Assembly: GCA_011884725.1 (NCBI GenBank)
Contig: GCA_011884725.1_3919.1
DNA length: 64,000 nucleotides
Origin: a phage
Reading direction: 5' to 3' (one strand)
This document shows, one piece after another, positions 6,434 through 46,117 of this stretch (position 1 is the stretch's first letter; each line of letters opens with the position of its first letter). Position numbers and translations under genes: made by a program. The notes under the pieces were generated by a model. It saw nothing but the letters and a program-made list of their open reading frames with translations. It ran no database searches and was not told the DNA's origin.

Positions 6434-8578
6434 ATGAACAAAGTACAGATTATTAAAAAGAATGGCTCACTTGAAGAACCTGATATCAAAAAAGTTTTAG
6501 CGGCAGTAACAAAGTCAGCTAACAGGGTTGGGTATAGAGAACTTCCACCAGATGTTACCCAAGCTCTTGAGTCAGCATTTATGAGGATTCTGGTAAAGTC
6601 CACTAAGCAGAATAATTTACTAATCTCGGTAAATGATATTCACAGTATTGTTGAGGGTGCTTTGGCAGAAGTTAATCACGAGATTTATGAGTCTTACTCA
6701 ACATATAGAAATTACCGTAAAGAGGTTGCTCAAAATTGGGATGAGCTTTACCAAAAGACCAGAGACACACTCTTCTTAGGTGACCGTGAAAATGCTAACT
6801 TTGACAGCAGTTTAATTTCTACAAAGGGTTCAATTATTCGTGGTTATCTGACTAAAGAAATCTTTAAACAATACTATTTAACACCAGAGGAACTTGAAGC
6901 CATTGAAAAAGGGTTTATCTACATCCATGACTTAAGAGACTTAATTTTTGGTGGTATTAACTGCTGCTTGTTTGACATTGGTAAAGTACTGAAAGGTGGC
7001 TTTGAAATGTCTGGCATCGAATACTGTGAACCGAAGTCTGTACTGTCAGCCTTACAAGTTATCGGTGATGTAGTTCTTTCAGCAACTGCACAGCAATTTG
7101 GTGGCTTTACTTTAGCAGAGATTGATAAGGTACTTGTACCATATGCTAAGAAGTCTCTACGCTATCATGCTGAGAAAGCATCATCTTATGGTATTCCTAA
7201 AGAGCATTACCACAATTATGTAATGGAGCAGTTACAAATTGAACTGACTCAGGGTTTTCAGTCACTTGAGATGAAACTAAATACCGTACCTTGTAGCCGT
7301 GGTGATTTTGCATTCACAACTTTAACATTTGGTTTACTTGACTCAGATATGTCTAATGAGGATAATCGACTCCAATACATGATTGCAAGTACTCTCCTAG
7401 ATGTTCGTATGAATGGACAAGGCAAGAGCAAAAAACCTGTTGTATTCCCTAAACTGGTTTATATTTATGACCAGAAGAGACATGATGAAAATATCTGTCA
7501 AGGTCACCTGTACAGTAAAGCTATTGAGTGTTGCTCTAAAGCGATGTACCCAGATTTCTTAAGTGTGTCTGGTCATGGTGCTGTAGCAGAGGCTTTTGAG
7601 CGTTCTGGTAAGGTAATTTCACCGATGGGTTGCAGAGCCTTCTTATCTCCATATTTTAATGAGGATGGGGAAGAGTTTTACGTTGGTCGTGCTAACATTG
7701 GTGCTGTATCTTTGAACTTGCCAATGATTTACCAGTACTCTAAAGAGAATGGTTTAGATTTCTGGAAAGAGCTTGATAAGTACCTAGAGATGATTCGCAA
7801 CTTCCACAAGAAACGCTACGAAATGATTGCTAATATGCCAGCAAGTTCTAACCCTCTTGCGTTCACACAAGGTGGTCTGTACAAAGGAACTAAGAAACCT
7901 ACTGACAAGGTTGGTTGGGATATTGTGAAGTCCTTCACAGCTTCTTTTGGTGTTACTGCGCTTGATGAGTTGTCTGTTCTTGCTGAAGGTAAACGACTTC
8001 ATGAAGTTGGAAGCTATAGTTTTGCATATGATGTTCTGGCATACATTAACATGAAAACCGAAGAGTTTAAAAATGAAGATGGCTTCTTATATGCCGTCTA
8101 TGGTACTCCAGCAGAATCACTATGTGGGACTCAGCTAAAACAGTTCAGAGATATGTTTGGGGTTATCAAAGGTGTTTCCGATAAGGAATACTTTACAAAC
8201 AGTTTCCATATGAATGTTGCAGCAGACATCTCACCATTTGAGAAGCAGGACTTAGAAGAGCCATTCTTCCATATCTGTAGAGGTGGTAGAATCCAGTATG
8301 TAAGAGTAGCTAACCCAGAAAACTTATCAGCACTTAAGAGTTGTATTACAAGAGGGATGTTGAAAGGTTTCTATCAGGGACTTAACTTTGACTTAGCAAT
8401 CTGTGAGCATTGTGGTAACAGACCAAAGGCTGATGTTGAAGAATGTGAGGTTTGTCATTCACATGATATCTCTGTGATTAACAGGGTGTGCGGGTACTTG
8501 TCATTCACAAAAATTAAAGGTCAGTCTCGAATGAATGACGCTAAGATGGCAGAAATTAAGGATAGGGTTTCTATGTAG
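6434..8578 (+). CDS. nrdD: anaerobic ribonucleoside-triphosphate reductase (class III)
   Basis: 714 aa; C-terminal glycyl-radical-like RVCGYL and CxxC...CxxC zinc ribbon (CEHCG...CEVCHS). Confidence 0.9.
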   Translation: MNKVQIIKKNGSLEEPDIKKVLAAVTKSANRVGYRELPPDVTQALESAFMRILVKSTKQNNLLISVNDIHSIVEGALAEVNHEIYESYSTYRNYRKEVAQNWDELYQKTRDTLFLGDRENANFDSSLISTKGSIIRGYLTKEIFKQYYLTPEELEAIEKGFIYIHDLRDLIFGGINCCLFDIGKVLKGGFEMSGIEYCEPKSVLSALQVIGDVVLSATAQQFGGFTLAEIDKVLVPYAKKSLRYHAEKASSYGIPKEHYHNYVMEQLQIELTQGFQSLEMKLNTVPCSRGDFAFTTLTFGLLDSDMSNEDNRLQYMIASTLLDVRMNGQGKSKKPVVFPKLVYIYDQKRHDENICQGHLYSKAIECCSKAMYPDFLSVSGHGAVAEAFERSGKVISPMGCRAFLSPYFNEDGEEFYVGRANIGAVSLNLPMIYQYSKENGLDFWKELDKYLEMIRNFHKKRYEMIANMPASSNPLAFTQGGLYKGTKKPTDKVGWDIVKSFTASFGVTALDELSVLAEGKRLHEVGSYSFAYDVLAYINMKTEEFKNEDGFLYAVYGTPAESLCGTQLKQFRDMFGVIKGVSDKEYFTNSFHMNVAADISPFEKQDLEEPFFHICRGGRIQYVRVANPENLSALKSCITRGMLKGFYQGLNFDLAICEHCGNRPKADVEECEVCHSHDISVINRVCGYLSFTKIKGQSRMNDAKMAEIKDRVSM

Positions 8579-25137: not shown

Positions 25138-25463
25138 TGACTGGTATCACTGCAATCATTGCCATTTTCGCGCTCTATAAGGCATATAAAGCCTATAATC
25201 TAGCAAATAAGGCAATCACACAACAGGTTAGTAATAGCCTTGTAATGAGCTTTCTAGAGCGGTTGAGCGATGAACAATTAAAGCGGTTAGAAATGAGCTT
25301 CAGATTCAGGGCGAGAACTTATCAAATCAGCGACATTTTCAAAGATGATTTTCAATTAGTCGATGATTATAATTCTCTGATAAATGCTTTAAATATTAGT
25401 GACTTAAAAGACTATCATACTGTAATTGTTCAAGAGTTGAGCAAACGAAAACAAAACTGTTGA
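25131..25463 (+). CDS. hypothetical small membrane protein (array gene 4)
   Basis: ORF track; start overlaps upstream gene; hydrophobic N-terminus. Confidence 0.45.
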   Translation: MLMTGITAIIAIFALYKAYKAYNLANKAITQQVSNSLVMSFLERLSDEQLKRLEMSFRFRARTYQISDIFKDDFQLVDDYNSLINALNISDLKDYHTVIVQELSKRKQNC

Positions 25464-25488
25464 CACTGATTTTTAGATAGATTAAATT
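25460..25488 (+). promoter_or_regulatory. sigma70-like promoter TTGACA-17-TAAATT inside type-A cassette
   Basis: Hexamers read directly; an identical roughly 60 bp segment including this promoter recurs at 26324-26352. Confidence 0.5.
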
Positions 25489-25552
25489 ACACATCAACGG
25501 GGAGGGAATGACCTTCCCCACTAAGTAAAGTCCTTAAACTAGGAGATTCAAA

Positions 25553-25910: not shown

Positions 25911-26315
25911 ATGACTATTAATAATCGTGAGTTGTCAATCTTAAAAGCACGTTTAACCGTTAATCGAATCAATGTTATTACATCATCAGCACCGGATGAA
26001 ACATTGCACAACATTATCGGAAAGATTCAAAGCGTTATCTTAGACGTTGAAAACGTAAAAAACTCATTGGCTGACGTTGCAGCAGGTATCACGCTAGACG
26101 GTGCACAATATGAAATGGCCGACATGTTAGGCAAATCTAAGGTAATGAATAAAGAGTTAGACTTGAAAATGTTTAGATTTGCCGTGAAAGTGTGGCTATC
26201 TGTTGAGTATGATGCTAATTTTGCAATCGCTGATTTCTTTGCCACTTGGTTACAACGTAATTTGGCAAATCATGACTTTCGTGACATCTGCGACGCAATT
26301 TATGCAGAACTCTAA
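25911..26315 (+). CDS. hypothetical small protein (array gene 6)
   Basis: ORF track; type-B cassette upstream. Confidence 0.55.
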   Translation: MTINNRELSILKARLTVNRINVITSSAPDETLHNIIGKIQSVILDVENVKNSLADVAAGITLDGAQYEMADMLGKSKVMNKELDLKMFRFAVKVWLSVEYDANFAIADFFATWLQRNLANHDFRDICDAIYAEL

Positions 26316-26323
26316 AAATTTTA

Positions 26324-26352
26324 TTGACACTGATTTTTAGATAGATTAAATT
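26324..26352 (+). promoter_or_regulatory. sigma70-like promoter TTGACA-17-TAAATT (second copy)
   Basis: Same sequence as 25460-25488. Confidence 0.5.
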
Positions 26353-26416
26353 ACACATCAACGGGGAGGGAATGACCTTCCCCACTAAGTAAAGTCCTTA
26401 AACTAGGAGATTCAAA

Positions 26417-26614
26417 ATGGCTATTATCAACGGTTTAACCATTGAAACCACGCACATCAAAGACATTAAAGTTGGTGATGTAGTTCTTTCCCACGGCGTA
26501 GAAAAAACAGTCACTGCAAAGGGTATCAAAGATGATTCTTTCATGGGTAGAACTCTCTTCGGTGATTCTTATTGCTTAGGTTATCTTGCAGTTTTAAAAG
26601 TTGTCAAAAATTAA
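26417..26614 (+). CDS. hypothetical small protein (array gene 7)
   Basis: ORF track; type-A cassette with promoter upstream. Confidence 0.5.
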   Translation: MAIINGLTIETTHIKDIKVGDVVLSHGVEKTVTAKGIKDDSFMGRTLFGDSYCLGYLAVLKVVKN

Positions 26615-26707
26615 CTGATAAAGTACTTTACAAGGGGTTTATAGTTCGATAAAGTAAGCCCCAGATAAAGAGCTTTACCACTAAATCCTTAAACTAGGAG
26701 ATTCAAA

Positions 26708-27250
26708 ATGAAATGCTTTCACGGTACTACTCAAGAAAACTTTATCAACCTGATTAATAACGGTGATAAACCATCAGGTGTATGGAATTGTTCGGATATG
26801 GACGGCAATTTTTACGTGTACCCAGAAAATAAACTCTATGGTGATGATGAGGAAGAGATAGCATCGGAAGGTATCCAGCAAGCTCTAGGAAATGCCACTA
26901 TCACGGCAGCTTTTCAGATGAAAACTCAAAATATTGTTATCTTAGAACTTGACATTCCAGAGGATGAGCTAAATGATGATTATTCTTGTGATAACATGTC
27001 AAATATAGCAAGCTTTACAGAGTACTTTGATGTAAATTGGATTAAAAAGGTCTATACAACAGAGTTCAACGCTATGTATTCACCTTTTTGTCTCCCTTCA
27101 CTGGATAACCCAAATTTAAATTATCTTGATGAAACATTGGAGCTACTTGCTAAAAGTATCCAACAATCCGACAGTATTCAGGTTTTTTGTGACATCATGG
27201 ATACACTGACAGAAAACATTGTAGAGAGTGATTTAAAGGTCTTTTTCTAA
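26708..27250 (+). CDS. hypothetical acidic protein (array gene 8)
   Basis: ORF track; type-B cassette upstream. Confidence 0.55.
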   Translation: MKCFHGTTQENFINLINNGDKPSGVWNCSDMDGNFYVYPENKLYGDDEEEIASEGIQQALGNATITAAFQMKTQNIVILELDIPEDELNDDYSCDNMSNIASFTEYFDVNWIKKVYTTEFNAMYSPFCLPSLDNPNLNYLDETLELLAKSIQQSDSIQVFCDIMDTLTENIVESDLKVFF

Positions 27251-39357: not shown

Positions 39358-40773
39358 ATGAGCGAATTATTTAAACATGCGCACCTTCATGCAGGTCGAA
39401 CTGAAAATGGTGCTGTAAACCATACTTCATCAATGTCTGCTCTTGTAGACTTTTACAAAGCTGCTGGTTCAAGCCGTAGCAATGTAGAAATCTTACCAGA
39501 CCTGTTCTACAAAGCTTTGCGTGAGGATGTTGATGTTGCAGTTCGTATTTTACTGCATATGCGAGATGTACGAGAAGGTATGGGTGAGCGTAAAGCCTTC
39601 AGAACTGTTTTACTTCAAGCGATTGAAGACAAAGTTTTAGAGCCTACGCAGGTTCTTCGCATTATGGATAAGATTGCAGAACTTGGTCGTTTTGATGACT
39701 TCAAAATCTTTGTAGGTACTCGTTTCGAGACAGATGCCTTCAAGCATTTAGAAGCAGCATTACTAGACCCTGCAACAGCAGGTTTGGCAGCTAAGTGGTT
39801 ACCACGAGTCAAACCACGTCATAAGCAGTTTGTAAAACGTTTCTGCAAGTTTGCCAACTTGAGCGAGAAAGAGTACCGCACACTGTTGTCTGCACTATCT
39901 GATACAGTTGAGCAAAAAATCTCTGCTAATGAGTTTGGTAAGATTGACTACAGTAAGATTCCTTCACTTGCTGCTGCACGCTACCAAAAACTGTTTAACC
40001 GTAAAGATGGAGAGCGATACAAAGCTTACATCGAGTCCTTATCAAAGGGTGAGGCTAAGATTAATGCTGGTGCTGTTTACCCATACGATGTGATTAAATC
40101 TGTCAAGCATGGTAATGCAGATGTTGCTAATGAGCAGTGGAAAGCACTACCAAACTGGATGGCAGAAGGTGAAAACATCTTGTGTATGTCTGATGTATCA
40201 AGTTCAATGTCTTGGGTGAATTTTGGCTCCATTACTGCTCTGGATATTGGTGTATCACTTGCCTTGTATGTAGCAGAACGCAATACAGGCTGCTTTAAGA
40301 ATGAGTTGATGGTTTATTCAACAAACCCTCACTTCATCGAACTGAGTGGTGATTTACGAAACCGTCATCGTCAGGTGATGCGACACGTTGAATATGGCTC
40401 AACTAACTTACAAGCAGCTTTTGACCGCATTCTTGAAACAGGTAAAAGAAACAACTTGACTCAGAAAGATATGCCAAGTAAGCTTATCATCTTCTCCGAT
40501 ATGGAGTTCAATCAGGTTGATGGAGCTAACGGTCGTACAAACTTTGAAGCAATTCAGAGTAAGTACAAAAAAGCTGGATATGAGATGCCACAACTGGTAT
40601 TCTGGTACTTAGCAAACCGTAATGGTACTTGCGAAGTGTCTGTTAAGGATAACGGTGTAGCAATGGTATCTGGTTTCTCTCCAGCCACTTTAAAAGCTCT
40701 GCTTGGTGGTGAGAAGTTTGACCCAATCAGCGTAATGCTCAAAGCAGTAATGATTGACCGTTATATCTGGTAA
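39358..40773 (+). CDS. vWA-domain protein with MIDAS motif
   Basis: 471 aa; C-terminal half has DxSxS (CMSDVSSSM) and a later IIFSDMEF acidic motif typical of von Willebrand A domains; helical N-terminal half. Confidence 0.55.
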   Translation: MSELFKHAHLHAGRTENGAVNHTSSMSALVDFYKAAGSSRSNVEILPDLFYKALREDVDVAVRILLHMRDVREGMGERKAFRTVLLQAIEDKVLEPTQVLRIMDKIAELGRFDDFKIFVGTRFETDAFKHLEAALLDPATAGLAAKWLPRVKPRHKQFVKRFCKFANLSEKEYRTLLSALSDTVEQKISANEFGKIDYSKIPSLAAARYQKLFNRKDGERYKAYIESLSKGEAKINAGAVYPYDVIKSVKHGNADVANEQWKALPNWMAEGENILCMSDVSSSMSWVNFGSITALDIGVSLALYVAERNTGCFKNELMVYSTNPHFIELSGDLRNRHRQVMRHVEYGSTNLQAAFDRILETGKRNNLTQKDMPSKLIIFSDMEFNQVDGANGRTNFEAIQSKYKKAGYEMPQLVFWYLANRNGTCEVSVKDNGVAMVSGFSPATLKALLGGEKFDPISVMLKAVMIDRYIW

Positions 40774-40791: not shown

Positions 40792-40820
40792 TTGACAATG
40801 TGTTTAATACCCTTTAATAT
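40792..40820 (+). promoter_or_regulatory. strong sigma70-like promoter TTGACA-17-TAATAT overlapping 9 bp inverted repeat AAGGGTATT / AATACCCTT
   Basis: Direct read, about 120 bp upstream of the first tRNA; inverted-repeat arms 40785-40793 and 40806-40814. Confidence 0.6.
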
Positions 40821-40882: not shown

Positions 40883-40917
40883 TTGACAACCACTAAAAAA
40901 TAATGTTAAAGTGGTTA
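40883..40917 (+). promoter_or_regulatory. promoter-like TTGACA with inverted repeat AACCACT / AGTGGTT; -10 weak
   Basis: Direct read; same A-rich-GT-TTGACA upstream pattern as the other promoters. Confidence 0.3.
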
Positions 40918-40938
40918 CATAGAGTTTGAAAAGTTTAT

Positions 40939-41015
40939 CTCTGTTTAGCTCAGCTTGGTAGAGCGTTCCGTTTGGGGCGGTAAGGCCGGAGGTTCAAGTC
41001 CTCCAACAGAGACCA
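40939..41015 (+). tRNA. tRNA-Pro (anticodon TGG)
   Basis: Acceptor CTCTGTT/AACAGAG, C1:G72, T-arm GGAGG-TTCAAGT-CCTCC, anticodon loop TTTGGGG, A73, encoded CCA. Confidence 0.75.
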
Positions 41016-41022
41016 AATTAAT

Positions 41023-41100
41023 GTTCCAGTAGACAAAATGGTAAAGTCACCACTCTTTCAAAGTGGATATCTGAGGGTTCAAATCCCTTCTGGAACGCCA
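41023..41100 (+). tRNA. tRNA-Glu (anticodon TTC)
   Basis: Acceptor GTTCCAG/CTGGAAC, anticodon stem CCACT/AGTGG loop CTTTCAA, T-loop TTCAAAT, G73, CCA. Confidence 0.75.
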
Positions 41101-41191
41101 GTTTTGACAGAAGACCAATTACAGCAAACTTAATCTTATTCATCTGAAGGTAAATCGGACAAAGAAGAGATTTGGTCTGGTCATTAAGAAT

Positions 41192-41268
41192 TGCGGGTAT
41201 AGAGAAAGGGCGTCTCACATGTCTCATTAGCATGGTATCGGCAGGTTCGACTCCTGCACCCGCCTCCA
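41192..41268 (+). tRNA. tRNA with CAT anticodon (Met or Ile2 type), atypical 5' region
   Basis: T-arm GCAGG-TTCGACT-CCTGC, 3' acceptor ACCCGCC, anticodon stem CATGT/GCATG loop CTCATTA; 5' acceptor has a 1:72 mismatch or an extra nt before the D-stem. Confidence 0.5.
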
Positions 41269-41352
41269 AATTTACAGAAGACCGTTTACAGCAAAATTGA
41301 ATGAAATTTTTAGCGGAAAAATTGAAAGATACGGTCTGGTAATACTAAACAT

Positions 41353-41426
41353 GGTTAGGAAGCACATAAGGTATGTGCGGTCGCCTGTTAAGCGAATGGC
41401 ACAGGGTTCGAATCCCTGACTAACCG
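41353..41426 (+). tRNA. tRNA-Asn (anticodon GTT)
   Basis: Acceptor GGTTAGG/ACTAACC, anticodon loop CTGTTAA, T-arm CAGGG-TTCGAAT-CCCTG, G73, no encoded CCA. Confidence 0.7.
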
Positions 41427-41438
41427 CAAAATTGAAAT

Positions 41439-41526
41439 GTGTCGTTATCCCGTAGATGGTAGCGGTGGGGACTGTAAATCCCTTGTCATTGAGACTCGGT
41501 AGGTTCGACTCCTACACGGCACACCA
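41439..41526 (+). tRNA. tRNA-Tyr (anticodon GTA), long variable arm
   Basis: 88 nt; acceptor GTGTCGT/ACGGCAC, anticodon loop CTGTAAA, T-arm GTAGG-TTCGACT-CCTAC, A73, CCA. Confidence 0.75.
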
Positions 41527-41531
41527 ATAAA

Positions 41532-41608
41532 GGCTATGTAGTTTAACTGGAGAAAATACTCCCCTGTCACGGGAGATGATGTGAGTTCAAGTCTCATCGT
41601 AGCCGCCA
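41532..41608 (+). tRNA. tRNA-Asp (anticodon GTC)
   Basis: Acceptor GGCTATG/CGTAGCC, anticodon stem CTCCC/GGGAG loop CTGTCAC, T-loop TTCAAGT, G73, CCA. Confidence 0.8.
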
Positions 41609-41837
41609 AATTATAATAAGTATTTCAAAATGATGTTTTGAGAGGGCTATTTAGCCCCTCCCTTAAAGAGTTCTTACGAGTATTCTTTAAAGGAGCAGAA
41701 GACCAAATACAGCAAGAATGTATGATATTTTCAAGCCAATCCAATTTTGAAAAAATTTAAAACTTGGTCTGGCTCAACAAATTTACAGAAGACCGTTTAC
41801 AGCAAAACTTAAACAATCTATTTCTCGGTAAAGAAAA

Positions 41838-41892
41838 GGCGAAGGTTCGATTCCTTCACTCGGCAGATGTCGAGTTGGTGTAATGGTAGCAC
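41838..41892 (+). pseudogene. tRNA remnant: 3'-half-like T-arm segment followed by 5'-half-like acceptor/D-arm segment, no intact cloverleaf
   Basis: GAAGG-TTCGATT-CCTTC-ACTCGGCA then GTCGAGTTGGTGTAATGGTAGCAC; no complementary acceptor partner found in correct order. Confidence 0.4.
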
Positions 41893-42065
41893 TTAAGATG
41901 ATAAACAACGGTCTGGTAATTATCTTTGTAGATAAGTTATTAAGCTTACCTGTGAGTATGCGACCACAAAGGGTGAAAGGGTAAATTCTAGATTTAAACC
42001 CAAAAAGGCACATCGCTACAGACCTTAAGCAAGTCTGGGTAGCTTATCTACAAAGATAATTTAAT

Positions 42066-42141
42066 GGAAGTGTAGCAGAATGGTGATGCGGCAGACTTTT
42101 AATCTGACAGGCGATGGGTTCGAATCCCTCCACTTCTACCA
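42066..42141 (+). tRNA. tRNA-Lys (anticodon TTT)
   Basis: Acceptor GGAAGTG/CACTTCT, anticodon loop CTTTTAA, T-loop TTCGAAT, A73, CCA; weak T-stem shared with the CTT Lys tRNA. Confidence 0.65.
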
Positions 42142-42145
42142 ATAT

Positions 42146-42222
42146 GGTTCAGTCGCAGATAAGGTAATGCAAGGGTCTCATAAGCCCTATGAATGTGGGT
42201 TCGATTCCCATCTGAACCTCCA
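42146..42222 (+). tRNA. tRNA-Met (anticodon CAT)
   Basis: Acceptor GGTTCAG/CTGAACC, anticodon stem AGGGT/GCCCT loop CTCATAA, T-arm GTGGG-TTCGATT-CCCAT, CCA. Confidence 0.75.
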
Positions 42223-42223
42223 A

Positions 42224-42299
42224 GCTGGTATAGTTAAGAAGGTTATAACACTCCCCTGATAAGGGAACATCGGTGGTTCGATTCCACCTACCAGTACCA
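42224..42299 (+). tRNA. tRNA-Ile (anticodon GAT)
   Basis: Acceptor GCTGGTA/TACCAGT, anticodon loop CTGATAA, T-arm GGTGG-TTCGATT-CCACC, A73, CCA. Confidence 0.7.
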
Positions 42300-42314
42300 A
42301 TTTCAATAAAGTTG

Positions 42315-42343
42315 TTGACATTGAGATGTGACTACTTTATAGT
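42315..42343 (+). promoter_or_regulatory. strong sigma70-like promoter TTGACA-17-TATAGT inside the tRNA cluster
   Basis: Direct read; followed by about 200 bp without ORF or tRNA before tRNA-Arg. Confidence 0.55.
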
Positions 42344-42545
42344 AACCTTAGTTTTCGTTGCGTAGCGTCTATTTTGCAAATTTAAAATAAATGCAAACGA
42401 CAATGTTTTTCTGGCAGTAGCTTGATAGGCTAAACACCAGTGAGGTCTTCCAATCCCTCATCAAAGAATTTGGCGTACTCGCCCACGGTATGATTAATAA
42501 GGTGGGCATCTTTAAGGGCTTTCTAAGAGAGTCTTTAAAGATAAT

Positions 42546-42622
42546 GCACCCTTAGTTCAATTGGATAGAGCAACGGTCTTCTAAATCGTTAGTTACAGGT
42601 TCGAATCCTGTAGGGTGTACCA
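42546..42622 (+). tRNA. tRNA-Arg (anticodon TCT)
   Basis: Acceptor GCACCCT/AGGGTGT, D-arm GTTCAATTGGATAGAGC, anticodon stem ACGGT/ATCGT loop CTTCTAA, T-loop TTCGAAT, A73, CCA. Confidence 0.8.
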
Positions 42623-42764
42623 AATAGTTAGCAGATTACTTAGACGGCCTTAGCGGGTCTTCCTGTAGGGAGGTGGTCTGTATCTCATGTTTTCCAGAAC
42701 ATGTAAATAATCTGAGAAGAAGCTTGACAGTGTTGAGATAACAGGGTAAGCTTCGAATTATAAT

Positions 42765-42847
42765 ATGGGACGATGTTAAGACTCTAAGGCATGAGCAACG
42801 GCCTCCAAAACCGTTTCAAAGGGGTTCAACTCCTCCGTCCCATGCCA
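42765..42847 (+). tRNA. tRNA-Trp (anticodon CCA) with enlarged D region
   Basis: Perfect acceptor ATGGGAC/GTCCCAT, anticodon stem ACGGC/ACCGT loop CTCCAAA, T-loop TTCAACT, G73, CCA; about 7 extra nt between acceptor and anticodon stem. Confidence 0.55.
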
Positions 42848-42860
42848 AAGTCTTATTAGG

Positions 42861-42948
42861 GGTAGGTAGCGGCTAATGGTAGCCAAACTGTCTTGAAAAC
42901 AGTTGCCACTGTAGAGATACGGTGAGGGTTCGACTCCTTTACTTACCG
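42861..42948 (+). tRNA. tRNA-Ser (anticodon TGA), long variable arm
   Basis: 88 nt; acceptor GGTAGGT/ACTTACC, anticodon stem ACTGT/ACAGT loop CTTGAAA, T-loop TTCGACT, G73. Confidence 0.7.
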
Positions 42949-43104
42949 CCTAATAAGATTTACTCCGTCCATGCTTGTTCGCATTGTCGGTTTATCCCTC
43001 GTGTATTGTCGTACACTGTCAAAGCACCTAGTAGGTGTCACGGAGAAGAGATAATATCAAGCTCTCCAAAGGTTCTAGTCACCGGATTAAACAAGACTAT
43101 GCAA

Positions 43105-43124
43105 AGACCTATTTAGGTCTTTTT
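43105..43124 (+). terminator. terminator-like hairpin AGACCT-ATTT-AGGTCT + TTTT inside tRNA cluster
   Basis: Direct read. Confidence 0.45.
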
Positions 43125-43204
43125 AGAGGGCTTCTAAGGTTATTAGTCGCTTGTTGTGGAACCTTGTTGCTTAGGTTCTTAGAAGTTCTCTAAAAAGATT
43201 TAAT

Positions 43205-43282
43205 GGGAGATTGACGGTAATTGGTAAACCTACCATCCTTAGAAGTTGGTGTTTGAGGGTTCGAATCCCTTGTCTCCTACCA
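43205..43282 (+). tRNA. tRNA with Leu-type anticodon TAG but short variable arm
   Basis: Acceptor GGGAGAT/GTCTCCT (two G-U pairs), D-loop AATTGGTAAA, anticodon loop CTTAGAA, T-arm GAGGG-TTCGAAT-CCCTT, A73, CCA. Confidence 0.5.
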
Positions 43283-43289
43283 AATTAAT

Positions 43290-43365
43290 GCAGGTGTAGC
43301 AAAATGGTTATGCGGCTGACTCTTAATCAGTAAGACGATGGGTTCAATTCCCTCCACCTGTACCA
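43290..43365 (+). tRNA. tRNA-Lys (anticodon CTT)
   Basis: Acceptor GCAGGTG/CACCTGT, anticodon stem GCTGA/TCAGT loop CTCTTAA, T-loop TTCAATT, A73, CCA. Confidence 0.65.
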
Positions 43366-43371
43366 AACATT

Positions 43372-43447
43372 GGGGATGTAGTTTACATGGTTAAAACATA
43401 AGTTTTGCAAACTTAAGTACAGGGTTCAATTCCCTGCTTCTCCACCA
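43372..43447 (+). tRNA. tRNA-Ala (anticodon TGC)
   Basis: G3:U70 pair in acceptor, anticodon stem TAAGT/ACTTA loop TTTGCAA, T-arm CAGGG-TTCAATT-CCCTG, A73, CCA. Confidence 0.7.
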
Positions 43448-43453
43448 ATTAGT

Positions 43454-43528
43454 GCATCCATAGTTTAAACGGGAAAATTACAGTCTTCCAAACTGAGGTT
43501 GAGGGTTCGATTCCCTCTGGATGCTCCA
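43454..43528 (+). tRNA. tRNA-Gly (anticodon TCC)
   Basis: Perfect acceptor GCATCCA/TGGATGC, anticodon loop CTTCCAA, T-arm GAGGG-TTCGATT-CCCTC, U73, CCA. Confidence 0.8.
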
Positions 43529-43534
43529 AACAAT

Positions 43535-43611
43535 GCTGCTTTCGTATAATTGGCTATTACACATCCCTTGTAAGGATGGAAATGCAGGTTCGAGTCCTGT
43601 GAGCAGCACCA
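43535..43611 (+). tRNA. tRNA-Thr (anticodon TGT)
   Basis: Acceptor GCTGCTT/GAGCAGC, anticodon stem CATCC/GGATG loop CTTGTAA, T-loop TTCGAGT, A73, CCA. Confidence 0.8.
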
Positions 43612-43707
43612 ATTCAGAGGTCAAGTGAAAGACCGCTTTGAGTCAACTGAAGACCGTAACAAATACCACGGAGTTGAGTTAGCGGCACAACTTCAGACCT
43701 CTTTCAT

Positions 43708-43782
43708 ACTCGCTTAGTTTATATGGTAAAACATCACCCTTACAAGATGAAGAAAAAGGTTCAAGTCCTTTAGTGAGTACCA
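43708..43782 (+). tRNA. tRNA-Val (anticodon TAC)
   Basis: Acceptor ACTCGCT/AGTGAGT, anticodon loop CTTACAA, T-arm AAAGG-TTCAAGT-CCTTT, A73, CCA. Confidence 0.65.
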
Positions 43783-43783
43783 T

Positions 43784-43861
43784 GTTCCAGTATCCCAATT
43801 GGCAGAGGATGCAAGCTCAAACCTTGTATTAGTGACGGTTCGAATCCGTCTTGGAACACCA
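43784..43861 (+). tRNA. tRNA with Leu-type anticodon CAA but short variable arm
   Basis: Acceptor GTTCCAG/TTGGAAC, D-loop AATTGGCAGAGGA, anticodon stem GCAAG/CTTGT loop CTCAAAC, T-arm GACGG-TTCGAAT-CCGTC, A73, CCA. Confidence 0.55.
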
Positions 43862-43866
43862 ATTTT

Positions 43867-43942
43867 GCAGGATTAGTTCAAATGGAAAGAGCAACAGTCT
43901 ACGAAGCTGTTAATAGGGGTTCGAATCCCTTATCCTGCGCCA
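43867..43942 (+). tRNA. tRNA-Arg (anticodon ACG)
   Basis: Perfect acceptor GCAGGAT/ATCCTGC, anticodon stem ACAGT/GCTGT loop CTACGAA, T-loop TTCGAAT, G73, CCA. Confidence 0.8.
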
Positions 43943-43959
43943 GATAAAAAGGTGATACT

Positions 43960-44202
43960 ATGCAAACATTAACAGTAGTTGAACATGAAAACTGTGAGAG
44001 TATTGAGTTTGTCAGGGTCATTGGTGTTGAACACCACATTTTCTTAAAAGTGGGATACTTATGTGACCCCGCTAGAGTAGAAAGATTTATACGTGATTGT
44101 TTTGGTGGTAGACATCTGAAGAGTGTTATTTTTGAGACAGTTTTACCAGAAGGTTTAGAAACGAATAATAACATTTACCTCCTTACGAGGATTAGACAAT
44201 GA
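43960..44202 (+). CDS. hypothetical protein (inside tRNA cluster)
   Basis: ORF track; AAAGGTGA upstream. Confidence 0.5.
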   Translation: MQTLTVVEHENCESIEFVRVIGVEHHIFLKVGYLCDPARVERFIRDCFGGRHLKSVIFETVLPEGLETNNNIYLLTRIRQ

Positions 44203-44756
44203 GATACTTAAAGTATGCTTCATGGATTTTCTTAGCTTTGTTAGAGCCATTTGCAGCAATCTTAGCAGTTATCTTAGCACCTTTTGTAGTTCCATTCTAC
44301 AGTGAGAAGAAAGGACACTTACCTTTCGGGTTCAGATGGATGGAGACATATGACAACCCAATTGATGGTGATGAAGGTCACGTTAAAAGATGGGCTAATA
44401 TTAGATGGATTGGTAAACTAGGTGTCTACATGCAAAGAGTCGGATGGCTCTGGAGAAACAAAGCTTATAACTTCTCTTACCATGTATTAGGAAGAGATGT
44501 AAGAGATGTTACTAAGTGGAAAGGTAATATCAACGTAAGTTCTAACCCTGAAGATAATCAGACTGGTTATCTCCTAATGTGGAACAGTAATGCTTGGGGA
44601 TTATTCGCTTTTATCCCATCAATTAAAGTCTTCGGTAAACAGTTTTACTGGAGAATTTATGTTGGATGGAAACTTAAAAGTGTTGTCCCAGAAGAAAGAG
44701 CATTCTCAAGGGAAAGAGTTATGTTGGCATTCTTTATTCATCCACTGAGAAAGTAA
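44199..44756 (+). CDS. hypothetical membrane protein (inside tRNA cluster)
   Basis: ORF track; N-terminal hydrophobic segment WIFLALLEPFAAILAVILAPFVVPF; Trp-rich. Confidence 0.5.
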   Translation: MRYLKYASWIFLALLEPFAAILAVILAPFVVPFYSEKKGHLPFGFRWMETYDNPIDGDEGHVKRWANIRWIGKLGVYMQRVGWLWRNKAYNFSYHVLGRDVRDVTKWKGNINVSSNPEDNQTGYLLMWNSNAWGLFAFIPSIKVFGKQFYWRIYVGWKLKSVVPEERAFSRERVMLAFFIHPLRK

Positions 44757-44764
44757 AGATTTAA

Positions 44765-44840
44765 AGGGGATTAGTTTACAAGGTTAAAACCTCGGTCTTT
44801 GAAATCGAAGAAGTTGGTTCAATTCCAACATCCCCCGCCA
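44765..44840 (+). tRNA. tRNA-Gln (anticodon TTG)
   Basis: Anticodon stem TCGGT/ATCGA loop CTTTGAA, T-arm GTTGG-TTCAATT-CCAAC, unpaired 1:72 and G73, CCA. Confidence 0.7.
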
Positions 44841-44842
44841 AT

Positions 44843-44921
44843 GCTCCATTACTCCAATTGGCAGAGAGGCCAGACTTAAAATCTGTGTTATGTATCGGTT
44901 CGAATCCGATATGGAGTACCA
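44843..44921 (+). tRNA. tRNA with Leu-type anticodon TAA but short variable arm
   Basis: Acceptor GCTCCAT/ATGGAGT, D-loop AATTGGCAGAGAG (paralogous to the CAA tRNA), anticodon loop CTTAAAA, T-arm ATCGG-TTCGAAT-CCGAT, A73, CCA. Confidence 0.55.
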
Positions 44922-44926
44922 AATTT

Positions 44927-45002
44927 AGCGGTATAGCATAACTGGCAATGCAGCAGTCTCTGAAGCTGTCCTATTAAGGTTCAAATCCTTATGCCGCTGC
45001 CA
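44927..45002 (+). tRNA. tRNA-Gln (anticodon CTG)
   Basis: Acceptor AGCGGTA/TGCCGCT, anticodon stem GCAGT/GCTGT loop CTCTGAA, T-arm TAAGG-TTCAAAT-CCTTA, G73, CCA. Confidence 0.7.
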
Positions 45003-45033
45003 CTTCTAAGGATTCTTACGAGAGTCCTTAAAT

Positions 45034-45109
45034 GTGGCCTTATCATAAATGGTAATGACCCATGCTGTGAACATGGTCTATACGGGTTCAAATCCCGTAG
45101 GTCACCCCA
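45034..45109 (+). tRNA. tRNA-His (anticodon GTG)
   Basis: Acceptor GTGGCCT/AGGTCAC, perfect anticodon stem CCATG/CATGG loop CTGTGAA, T-loop TTCAAAT, C73, CCA. Confidence 0.8.
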
Positions 45110-45114
45110 ATTTA

Positions 45115-45191
45115 TAGTCCAAGTAGCTTATATGGTTAAAGCGCGTGTCTGAAAAACATGAGAAGAGGGTTCAAATCCCACTGGACTACCA
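45115..45191 (+). tRNA. tRNA-Phe (anticodon GAA)
   Basis: Acceptor TAGTCCA/TGGACTA, anticodon stem CGTGT/ACATG loop CTGAAAA, T-loop TTCAAAT; exact 3' end ambiguous by 2 nt. Confidence 0.65.
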
Positions 45192-45207
45192 ATTTCAAAG
45201 GTGCTTA

Positions 45208-45942
45208 ATGAAAGAGATGACAGAACAAGGTAAGGAGATTTTCAATCTCTTAAAAACCGGTAAAGGGTTTTCTAACCCCCTTATTACTGGTGCAGCAGTT
45301 CTCGGTGGAACCGTAGCTGCCTCTACATCACTTGTAAGCTCTATTAGCTCTGTATCAGACCCTACAGTAAAGGATAAGCTTGTTGCTGCTGGACTTACAA
45401 CAGTTCTGCTTAACAGCTTTACCACGAGTCTGACAAGCACTACATCAACTACCAAAACACTAACAGATTACGGTCAAAAGTCCATTGATGAGTTTTCATC
45501 ACGTATGCAGGTAGCAAAAGGTTACTCTAATGTTATGGGTGCAGCAGGTGAACAAGTTGGCTGTACACCATTTAGTGGTATTATGGGTGTTGCTACAGAG
45601 TATGGTCAAAAAACTATTGATACGATTAACAGTGTACTAGATAGTGTTAATGGTGTGTTAAGTGACTTACAAGATGCTATTGACAAAGGTCTTGATACTA
45701 TTTCTGATTTAGCTGAGCAAGCTGTTAGTAAGATTAATGAAGGTATTTCAAAAATTACAGCTTATGCAGATGAAGTTGTGCAGATGATTGAAGAAGAAGC
45801 TGCTCTTATTGCAGAGTACCTTAAAACGAATATCAATGGGTTCTTAGCAGGTATCTTACCAGACTGGTTTGATGATGCTTGTAAAACTGGTGTAATTGAC
45901 ACTATTGCAACACCAGAAATGAAGAACGCATTACAGAAATAA
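45208..45942 (+). CDS. hypothetical Ser/Thr-rich protein
   Basis: Start set to ATG 45208 (track ORF start 45145 lies inside the tRNA-Phe gene); stop 45940-45942 sits 2 nt before a tRNA. Confidence 0.45.
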   Translation: MKEMTEQGKEIFNLLKTGKGFSNPLITGAAVLGGTVAASTSLVSSISSVSDPTVKDKLVAAGLTTVLLNSFTTSLTSTTSTTKTLTDYGQKSIDEFSSRMQVAKGYSNVMGAAGEQVGCTPFSGIMGVATEYGQKTIDTINSVLDSVNGVLSDLQDAIDKGLDTISDLAEQAVSKINEGISKITAYADEVVQMIEEEAALIAEYLKTNINGFLAGILPDWFDDACKTGVIDTIATPEMKNALQK

Positions 45943-45944
45943 AT

Positions 45945-46037
45945 GGAAGATTAACCCTAAAAGGTAAGGGAGCAGTTTGCTAAACTGCCAGTAGCTGAGA
46001 AATCGGTGTACCAGTTCAAGTCTGGTATCTTCCTCCA
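45945..46037 (+). tRNA. tRNA-Ser (anticodon GCT), long variable arm
   Basis: 93 nt; perfect acceptor GGAAGAT/ATCTTCC, perfect anticodon stem GCAGT/ACTGC loop TTGCTAA, T-arm ACCAG-TTCAAGT-CTGGT, CCA. Confidence 0.7.
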
Positions 46038-46041
46038 ATTT

Positions 46042-46117
46042 GAATCCGTGACAGAAACGGCTATGTGCCTGTCTGCAAAACAGGTTTATAAGGGTTCGAG
46101 TCCCTTCGGATTCTCCA
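46042..46117 (+). tRNA. tRNA-Cys (anticodon GCA)
   Basis: Perfect acceptor GAATCCG/CGGATTC, perfect anticodon stem CCTGT/ACAGG loop CTGCAAA, T-arm AAGGG-TTCGAGT-CCCTT, U73, CCA. Confidence 0.8.

Follow-up and report, generated by a model that had tools for sequence, protein, structure and literature searches.

Candidate Y RNA-like genes among the tRNA genes of a Felixounavirus, downstream of a gene for a predicted Ro60-fold protein

The DNA analysed here is a stretch of 64,000 nucleotides (nt) of phage DNA (contig GCA_011884725.1_3919.1 of assembly GCA_011884725.1; "the window" denotes this whole stretch), and the elements in question are four repeated structured units which sit among the non-tRNA spacers in the first part of its tRNA cluster. 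The phage is a Felixounavirus (Ounavirinae), and positions 40900-42350 match many Felix O1-like phages of E. coli, Salmonella and Shigella at 96-98% identity. In our judgement the four units are very probably genes for Y RNA-like non-coding RNAs which partner the Ro60-like protein encoded upstream, three of them short and similar to YrlB and one long and similar to YrlA. The reading is carried by the structure and covariation of the units, by the Ro60 fold predicted for the neighbouring protein, and by a strand-specific association of the RNA signature with the protein family in two independent collections of sequences. The original prediction, made from the letters of the window without database searches, had pointed to these spacers as candidate small RNAs and had overlooked the main clue, the Ro60-fold gene immediately upstream. 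All four units lie on the + strand within 1.15 kb of this gene, which ends 332 nt before unit 1. The gene and the units are as follows.

39358-40773, + strand: gene for a predicted Ro60-fold protein of 471 amino acids, with Pfam domains DUF2828 and DUF7788, PHROGs family phrog_850 ("RNA-binding protein"), a HEAT-repeat ring and a vWA domain
41105-41183, + strand: unit 1, candidate short Y-like RNA; outer helix TGAC/GTCA, inner helix AGACCAA/TTGGTCT (41112-41118 with 41172-41178), UUACAGCAA at 41119-41127, interior hairpin
41272-41342, + strand: unit 2, candidate short Y-like RNA; outer helix TTAC/GTAA, inner helix AGACCGT/ACGGTCT (41279-41285 with 41331-41337), UUACAGCAA
41693-41775, + strand: unit 3, candidate short Y-like RNA; outer helix GAGC/GCTC, inner helix AGACCAA/TTGGTCT (41700-41706 with 41764-41770), AUACAGCAA, conserved interior hairpin UUUCAA...UUGAAA
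41783-41919, + strand: unit 4, candidate long YrlA-like RNA; outer helix TTAC/GTAA, inner helix of 8 base pairs (bp; 41790-41797 with 41907-41914), UUACAGCAA, V, T, acceptor-like (AS) and D arms

The tRNA cluster spans 40939-46117 on the + strand and comprises 26 genes (ARAGORN). Unit 1 is flanked by tRNA-Glu (ending at 41100) and tRNA-Met (starting at 41192), unit 2 by tRNA-Met (ending at 41268) and tRNA-Asn (starting at 41353), and the gap from each unit to its neighbouring tRNAs or units measures 4-10 nt.

The common 5' motif which had been noticed in the four spacers, CAGAAGACC-N3-TACAGCAA (searched as CAGAAGACCNNNTACAGCAA), is found at 41108, 41275, 41696 and 41786, always on the + strand and with zero mismatches, against 0.01 copies expected from shuffled sequence. 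Every copy is followed, as had also been described, by GGTCTGG (41174, 41333, 41766 and 41910), a heptamer which occurs 13 times in the window against 4.15 expected. The pairing of GGTCTGG with CAGACC that was originally drawn from this does not hold: in all four units the closing helix of 7-8 bp pairs AGACCNN with NNGGTCT, a separate outer helix of 4 bp (TGAC/GTCA in unit 1, TTAC/GTAA in units 2 and 4, GAGC/GCTC in unit 3) stands outside it, and between the two lies an invariant AGA/G internal loop. The N3 positions covary with those preceding GGTCT: units 2 and 4 have CCGT/ACGG, units 1 and 3 have CCAA/TTGG. The inner helix is followed in every unit by UWCAGCAA and then by a variable interior. 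The identical 26-mer reported for units 2 and 4 is correct and too short, the true identity being 30 nt (41267-41296 equals 41778-41807). Within this shared part, AGAAGACCGU (41276-41285 and 41787-41796) has a 10-nt complementarity to the anticodon arm of the phage tRNA-Arg(UCU) at 42573-42582, and CAACGGTCTGGTAA after unit 4 resembles CAACGGTCTTCTAA in the same tRNA. As a signal this complementarity was set aside, about 0.5 such matches being expected by chance on a rough estimate.

Unit 4 is the only one of the four with a tRNA-like domain carrying T-loop and D-loop consensus bases. In the fold its interior consists of a V hairpin of 5 bp (41822-41837), a T arm (41841-41857; GAAGG-UUCGAUU-CCUUC, with the T loop UUCGAUU), an acceptor-like hairpin (41858-41875) and a D arm (41878-41892; loop AAUGGUA). 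The acceptor-like hairpin has 7 bp, formed by a 3' acceptor-like strand (41858-41864), the loop AGAU and a 5' acceptor-like strand (41869-41875). The T arm, both acceptor-like strands and the D arm are thus located in the fold where the original prediction had placed its tRNA-like pieces. With the ends of the RNA at the position of the anticodon stem, this order V-T-AS-D is that of YrlA, whose gene lies beside Ro60 genes in bacteria and in some phages (Chen et al. 2014, PMC4201824). From genus to genus the acceptor-like stem changes with full compensation (ACTCGGC/GTCGAGT, ACCCTTC/GAAGGGT, ACACGTT/GGCGTGT), being rewritten and still paired in Moogle and Sf15. The description of unit 4 as a tRNA remnant has accordingly to be given up, since its permuted T arm, acceptor hairpin and D arm together constitute an intact domain of the tRNA type that compensatory changes maintain. 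ARAGORN calls no canonical tRNA in 41609-42065, and the Rfam tRNA model aligns to unit 4 only with the T arm and the 3' strand (15.7 bits, threshold 29). In permuted tRNA genes, such as those of Cyanidioschyzon merolae, the 3' half comes before the 5' half and the RNA is re-joined into a functional tRNA with an anticodon loop. A permuted tRNA gene was considered for unit 4 as well and rejected: the order is permuted, but no anticodon stem-loop is possible, the unit lacking an anticodon arm and its ends forming in that place the closing helix that bears CAGCAA.

The upstream gene is predicted to encode a protein with the Ro60 fold. An AlphaFold2 model built on 37 homologues reached a predicted local distance difference test score (pLDDT) of 88.5 and a predicted template modelling score (pTM) of 0.88, and with Foldseek the twelve best matches of this model among solved structures are all Ro60 (9l5y, 9kop, 2i91, 1yvr and 2nvo; E 5e-8 to 4e-6, full length). 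They are the proteins of Thermus phage phiLo and Xenopus and the Rsr of Deinococcus, and below them only vWA domains follow. The residues of the metal ion-dependent adhesion site (DxSxS, T, D; D279, S281, S283, T349 and D381) are invariant in the 37 homologues. At the level of sequence, phmmer found nothing at E<0.01 among PDB sequences. Homologues were present in 710 of 50,697 phage records, including mycobacteriophages, where they are annotated as "Ro-like RNA binding protein", and phages of Listeria, Staphylococcus, Enterococcus, Bacillus, Campylobacter and Vibrio; the mycobacteriophage protein is 34% identical to that of the window over the full length and likewise consists of DUF2828 and DUF7788 (Pfam). 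In Listeria phage LP-083-2 a gene for an RtcB-like ligase lies 1.3 kb downstream of the Ro-like gene (L087, 6815-8026), and in mycobacteriophage Kingsolomon a Band-7-like gene is found upstream of it (L086, 731-1663). These neighbours echo the bacterial Rsr/RtcB repair neighbourhoods, and none such was noted beside the Ro-like gene of the window.

Loci with homologues of this gene were scanned for the closing structure of the units. The loose pattern consisted of a 7-nt strand, 3 nt, CAGCAA, 25-230 nt and the perfect complement of the strand, and the loci were 80 viral contigs with homologues together with named phages; the strict pattern added a G at helix position 2 and a G after the helix and was run on 80 non-redundant loci of about 0.8 Mb in all. 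With the strict pattern 80 matches were found on the strand of the Ro-like gene and 2 on the opposite strand, while shuffled sequence gave about 0.3 (0-2 in each of ten shuffles). In the 64-kb window it returned the four units and nothing else. With the loose pattern, 73 out of 97 extragenic matches lay within 1 kb of the Ro-like gene. The result was replicated on an independent set of 80 genome contigs, where 131 matches stood against 5 on the opposite strand and 1-5 in shuffled sequence, 63 of the 80 loci being positive. Some features were conserved in 83 modules without being demanded by the scan: U at position 8 (75/83), A or U at position 9 (83/83), a pyrimidine at position 4 (75/83), no C directly in front of the helix, and an A-rich stretch leading up to the 3' strand. 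The lengths of these modules fall into two classes, 46-77 nt and 87-246 nt. The core signature is a 7-bp helix with G-C as second pair, N-U-W, CAGCAA, a variable interior, the complementary strand and a 3' G, and more than 200 modules of this kind adjoin homologous genes. The 5' flank is not conserved in the wider family, whose invariant part is N-U-W-CAGCAA after the helix.

In Yersinia phage P778, whose protein is 54% identical, the spacers read TGC-ACA-GGACTGT-TTACAGCAA...ACAGTCC-A-GCA, so that the helix is changed by compensation and CAGCAA is kept. Kingsolomon carries three tandem modules with the stem-CAGCAA closure directly after its Ro-like gene; the middle one holds a tRNA-like domain and is matched by the Rfam YrlA model below threshold (37.9 bits, E 1e-5). 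A Listeria phage has three modules before its Ro-like gene, and further modules were found in phages of Campylobacter, Staphylococcus, Enterococcus and Bacillus. Rfam at gathering gave only tRNA matches on ten related loci with about 30 modules. Out of 24 tRNA-like modules, 6 begin the loop of the acceptor-like hairpin with a discriminator base followed by CCA, where unit 4 has AGAU instead; if cut in this loop by RNase P, such modules would expose an encoded tRNA 3' end. They are located as follows.

L005 and L091 (phages Moogle and HP1): CCA-loop modules
L044, 6419-6547: CCA-loop module
L053, 6525-6638: CCA-loop module
L082, 6792-6920 and 9481-9609: CCA-loop modules

Long modules of some unrelated viral contigs (L012 4276-4370, L013 3133-3232, L017 149-280, L020 1265-1373 and L030 4734-4828) contain a second interior domain with CCUUUCUGGAGGGGAAAGCAAAAACUCGCC, which suggests another class of effector besides the tRNA mimic. 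The spacers of P778 hold in addition two tRNA-like genes with good acceptor and T arms and an insert of about 60 nt or more in the middle (L004, 7012-7150 and about 7200-7390), neither of which is called by ARAGORN.

Because the pattern scan itself selects for pairing, covariance models were trained on distant phages only. Model R1 was built from 30 short modules, none of them from Ounavirinae, whose helix is paired in 98.6% of cases against 60.6% when shuffled. On the window its three best matches are units 1, 2 and 3 (30.8, 29.0 and 18.1 bits; E 8e-6, 2.5e-5 and 0.027), and with filters off on the cluster only, nothing else scores and unit 3 reaches E 0.003. One extra match of R1 in the window, at 27099-27165 on the - strand (17.2 bits, E 0.047; UGGAUAC-UUU-UAGCAA...GUAUCCA-G), was judged a chance match rather than a family member, because UAGCAA replaces CAGCAA and the site is antisense within an open reading frame (ORF) of 180 amino acids on the + strand. 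Model R2 was built from 9 long modules, again without Ounavirinae. For these modules RNAalifold independently predicts the closing helix, the T arm, the AS hairpin and the D arm, with compensatory changes in 20 of 24 pairs. On the window R2 recovers unit 4 at full length with 57.2 bits (E 3e-10), the next best match being a tRNA junction with 24.5 bits. Across all loci R2 has 24 members, in which 93.9% of the alignment cells are paired against 59% after shuffling and about 40% after sliding, and 192 cells are changed on both sides against 63 in shuffled alignments; this alignment was fitted to the model and leans towards the structure, and 15 of its 24 sequences were outside model building.

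The four units occupy the same positions in Felixounavirus, Mooglevirus and Suspvirus. Within the Ounavirinae the two helices, the AGA/G loop between them and UWCAGCAA show essentially no change, while the interiors diverge in length and sequence and keep their hairpins by compensation; in unit 2 the outer helix itself changes between strains from TTAC/GTAA to TTGC/GCAA, again with compensation. The G-U pairs in the + strand reading and the strand bias of 80:2 speak for a structure formed in RNA rather than in DNA. In the folding and covariation analysis across related phages, which the original prediction had proposed as a check, the helices covaried and the motifs were conserved. Its proposal that these spacers are structured elements and not random sequence stands on the covariation, the conservation across genera of Ounavirinae and the wider RNA family; its tRNA remnant and its closing pairing did not hold.

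The closest known systems are YrlA and YrlB of Salmonella and Mycobacterium smegmatis (RF02553, PMC4201824). Like the units, they adjoin a Ro60-fold gene in the same orientation, an internal loop interrupts the helix formed between their two ends, and a YUAY-type element (UUAC in the window) follows the second helix; YrlA has the V, T, AS and D arms in the same order as unit 4, and YrlB, which is shorter and without a tRNA-like domain, parallels units 1-3. The known Y RNAs of the YrlA kind are further characterised by association with Ro60, by modifications of the tRNA type (pseudouridine 55, dihydrouridine) and by sensitivity to RNase P. The differences are that the window has four RNAs which are embedded in a tRNA array, that a helix with UWCAGCAA replaces the conserved Ro-binding sequence of the 5' strand (GNCGAAN0-1G in bacteria, GGUCCGA in metazoa; Chen et al. 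2014), that the partner is of the DUF2828/DUF7788 and not of the TROVE type, that Rfam does not match the units, and that no rtcBA repair operon was noted nearby. The mycobacteriophage system of Ro-like protein and YrlA shares with the window the protein family and the stem-CAGCAA closure and differs in host phylum, phage family and arrangement, its modules following the gene directly without tRNAs between. As far as we found, the stem-CAGCAA closure of the mycobacteriophage had no earlier description, nor had the two short modules on either side of the tRNA-like one; likewise the helix-UWCAGCAA signature and the Felixounavirus RNAs were found described neither in Rfam 15 nor in the literature, of which our coverage was incomplete.

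The Ro60 of Thermus phage phiLo binds phage-encoded Y-like RNAs (Yrl1 and Yrl2, with genes beside that of Ro60) and the host PNPase (PMC12135203; PDB 9KOP and 9L5Y). It is the best structural match of the window protein, yet the identity in the structural alignment is only about 15%; unlike the units, its RNAs carry a CGAA motif, and a tRNA cluster context is not reported for phiLo. The PhageMaP preprint reports for the Felixounavirus Bas63 that gp130, a Ro60-like protein whose gene lies immediately 5' of the tRNA genes, counteracts the Ppl defence, and its authors only speculate that some annotated tRNA genes are Y RNAs (bioRxiv 10.1101/2024.10.10.617714). For a protein of the Bas63 type the unannotated spacer units are better Y RNA candidates than the annotated tRNAs. 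Listeria phage CKA15 (P100-like) has a Ro-like homologue, CKA15_055 (about 29% identity, measured in the related cka14 and cka18 records), and three stem-CAGCAA modules between CKA15_055 and CKA15_056 (about 25,291-25,552), behind a strong TTGACA-17-TATCAT promoter. Its authors proposed Y RNAs as a possible explanation of abundant non-coding transcripts, most phage reads late in infection coming from the region of CKA15_059-061 at 26,236-26,727, the most abundant of three such hot spots (PMC12282133). That region, about 490 nt of non-coding sequence between tRNAs with no Rfam match at gathering, is distinct from the locus of the three modules; the abundant transcript was therefore not taken as expression of the modules, its coordinates being those of a different locus. 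Small RNAs within a phage tRNA cluster are also present in phage T4, where the stable RNAs "species 1" and "species 2" (rnaC and rnaD), of unknown function, are matured together with the tRNAs; the units are likened to them by description only, and we know of no Ro60-like partner of the T4 RNAs.

Several results weigh against the identification of the units as Y RNAs. While the system has the architecture of Ro60 with YrlA and YrlB, it departs from it in three sequence comparisons. The Rfam YrlA model does not match the units at gathering (69 bits), nor at E<10 even on a 161-nt slice with unit 4; more generally the Rfam search, which the original prediction had also proposed, left the units undetected, giving only tRNAs and chance matches whether the cut-off was gathering or E<10 and whether the query was the window, the cluster or unit 4 by itself. 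The published motif GNCGAAN0-1G is absent from the units, which have in the equivalent place ACAGAAG, similar without matching it. Pfam TROVE (PF05731) does not match the product of 39358-40773. Further, the strict pattern is missing at about a quarter of the loci with a homologue, many of which are short contigs. Folded as single sequences, units 1, 2 and 4 do not stand out (z-scores -1.1 to -2.0), and for unit 3 the minimum-energy fold picks another pairing; unit 3 is also the weakest of the four and its R1 score of 18.1 bits is marginal. Bas63 gp130 is taken as the orthologue of the window gene by description, namely a Felixounavirus protein which is Ro60-like and encoded directly upstream of the tRNAs.

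Among other explanations, the units could be structures for the processing or insulation of a polycistronic tRNA transcript, which guide RNase E, III or P or prevent misfolding of the tRNAs without any protein partner and without an independent life as RNA. Their tight fit between the tRNAs (4-10 nt) would suit this, and structured spacers without CAGCAA exist in the same cluster (41609-41692, 41918-42061 and 43113-43203). We regard it as unlikely, since phages of Listeria, Staphylococcus and Campylobacter and many metagenomic and genome contigs carry tandem modules without intervening tRNAs, always beside the Ro-like gene and co-oriented with it, and since an invariant single-stranded CAGCAA and a full tRNA-like domain would be unexpected of a simple spacer. 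Cis-acting sites by which the Ro-like protein controls itself or the tRNA operon, in the manner of ribosomal-protein leaders and not as free effector Y RNAs, share the binding step with the Y RNA reading. The modules stand immediately up- or downstream of the gene at most loci, and several copies could titrate the protein; the units of the window are placed downstream of the gene, apparently past promoter-like sites and with tRNAs between, and the elaborate covarying interiors, tRNA-like and others, suggest additional partners, which makes purely cis-acting sites quite improbable.

Decay of tRNA genes, or a duplicated spacer without function, with unit 4 as the junction of two degraded tandem tRNAs, would be consistent with the weak resemblance of real tRNA junctions (a 3' half followed by the next 5' half) to the order T-acceptor-D, which gives 21-25 bits with R2, and with the pseudo-tRNAs annotated in the cluster by some GenBank records. 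These annotations concern tRNA-Tyr and not the units, unit 4 reaches 57 bits where real junctions give at most 25, a 4-nt loop closes its acceptor-like stem, which is fully compensated between genera, and the family spans many unrelated phage groups; decay is on these grounds highly improbable. Small proteins are annotated here in several GenBank records as "hypothetical protein", and ORFs of 31-83 amino acids overlap the units, among them one of 76 amino acids on the - strand (41783-42013), the counterpart of wV8 gp048. Neither this ORF nor the others over the units match a Pfam family or are conserved in Moogle, where the 76-amino-acid ORF is reduced to 34 amino acids, and the changes between genera are non-triplet indels and compensatory changes of the RNA type, so that we give coding almost no weight. 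Elements acting as DNA, whether miniature inverted-repeat mobile elements, recombination sites or promoters defined by AGACCNN...NNGGTCT, would account for the inverted repeats flanking every unit and for the TTGACA or TTTACA which overlaps the 5' end of units 1, 2 and 4; they are hard to reconcile with strand biases of 80:2 and 131:5, with G-U pairs, with a stem whose sequence is free as long as it is complementary, with unit positions fixed across genera and with the lack of a sigma-70-like -10 box at the right spacing in the units (consensus scan), and are barely credible. Type III toxin-antitoxin RNA repeats, retrons and CRISPR were set aside solely because the adjacent protein is Ro60-like; the other neighbours were not systematically screened for matching enzymes.

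With the units read as Y RNA genes, we infer their transcription, processing, binding and biological role as follows. Two promoter-like sites lie just 5' of tRNA-Pro.

40792-40820, + strand: sigma-70-like promoter match TTGACA-17-TAATAT (consensus scan)
40883-40912, + strand: sigma-70-like promoter match TTGACA-18-TAAAGT (consensus scan)

This pair is the likely start of a polycistronic transcript of tRNAs and Y-like RNAs, a weak inference from position, as the total of promoter matches in the region does not exceed that of shuffled sequences. The scan found no terminator match on the + strand from this pair (about 40.8 kb) to 42299, and no promoter or terminator site within the units on that strand. 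Because promoters precede tRNA-Pro, no terminator is seen before 42299 and the units stand 4-10 nt from the tRNAs, the units would be transcribed together with the phage tRNAs from about 40.8 kb and would be freed by the enzymes that mature the flanking tRNAs. The two-part closing helix with the single-stranded UWCAGCAA would then be where the Ro60-fold protein docks, the outcome being a set of ribonucleoproteins of the phage; by analogy with known Ro60 systems, the phage Ro60-like protein is the most likely partner of the units. The variable interiors might act as effector, tether or decoy modules, as small hairpins in units 1-3 and, in unit 4, as a tRNA mimic whose T-loop/D-loop elbow is intact. 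Such particles might redirect RNA-handling enzymes of the host or shield phage RNAs, by analogy with Ro60 and Y RNA, which would fit the counter-defence role reported for Bas63 gp130.

More tentatively, and as a possibility to which we lean less than half-way, the stem-UWCAGCAA could be the code by which a distinct branch of Ro60, spread across phages (DUF2828/DUF7788, phrog_850), recognises its RNAs, with these RNAs as a large unannotated superfamily of Y RNAs with interchangeable effector modules and the particles as counter-defence devices which by tRNA mimicry trap or redirect host nucleases such as Ppl. The effector modules of such a superfamily may include simple hairpins, a recurrent domain of the CCUUUCUGGAGGGGAAAG type and tRNA mimics, of which some encode an NCCA end within the acceptor loop.

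Particles of Ro60 and Y RNA are known from animals to bacteria, and in phages, from which a few examples are described, most RNA partners await identification. For the Ro60-like protein of the Felix O1-like phages exact candidate RNAs can now be given, and a simple signature marks more than 200 modules in phages of Gram-negative, Gram-positive and actinobacterial hosts and in prophage-like contigs, none of which is captured by current Rfam thresholds. As genome records often mis-annotate the modules as small ORFs, their annotation would remove spurious "hypothetical proteins" and open a defined problem of RNA-protein recognition. The interest is for the fields of Ro60 and Y RNA and of phage counter-defence, and no new principle is involved.

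The cluster contains other structured spacers, which are listed here.

41609-41692, + strand: structured spacer after tRNA-Asp with three hairpins, folding z-score -4.2, outside the Y-like family
41918-42061, + strand: element 5, long hairpin, about 100 nt enclosed by a stem of about 24 bp, ending 4 nt before tRNA-Lys, folding z-score -6.3
43113-43203, + strand: similar long hairpin, near-perfect with 26-nt arms, ending 2 nt before tRNA-Leu, folding z-score -5.6

Element 5 corresponds to the inverted repeat of 16 bp originally described after unit 4, which is real and longer than stated, with 22-nt arms (41918-41939 and 42040-42061) that are 95% complementary and 100 nt apart. In Mooglevirus and Suspvirus its stem and an inner hairpin (42019-42037) are kept with 5 compensatory pairs, the remaining interior diverging. 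Long duplexes immediately upstream of tRNAs suggest processing of the RNase III type, and both long hairpins may be such sites. Alternatively, element 5 may be a fifth protein-binding RNA: the 9-nt loop of its inner hairpin, CUUAAGCAA (CUUUAGCAA in Moogle), resembles UWCAGCAA, and this AGCAA loop may link it to the Ro-like protein. The spacer at 41609-41692 may be a signal for processing or termination; its hairpin with a UUACGAG loop (AAGAGTTCTTACGAGTATTCTTTAA) recurs at 45008-45032 on the + strand, and a similar hairpin, read by eye, follows tRNA-Asp in Yersinia phage P778 (L004, about 6720-6760).

The spacer after tRNA-Ile (42241-42545, + strand) contains a strong promoter match (42315-42343, 11/12) and weak sub-threshold Rfam matches to permuted tmRNA (29.2 bits) and tmRNA (15.7 bits), and over the equivalent region of Moogle (L005, 6382-7130) ARAGORN calls a dubious permuted tmRNA. 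At 42764-42845 on the + strand a tRNA-like fold is present which is not called by ARAGORN and scores 23 bits in Rfam as tRNA-Sec-like; it has an acceptor stem of 9 bp and an anticodon-type stem with the 9-nt loop CCUCCAAAA containing CCA (Trp), tRNA-Trp being otherwise absent from the cluster.

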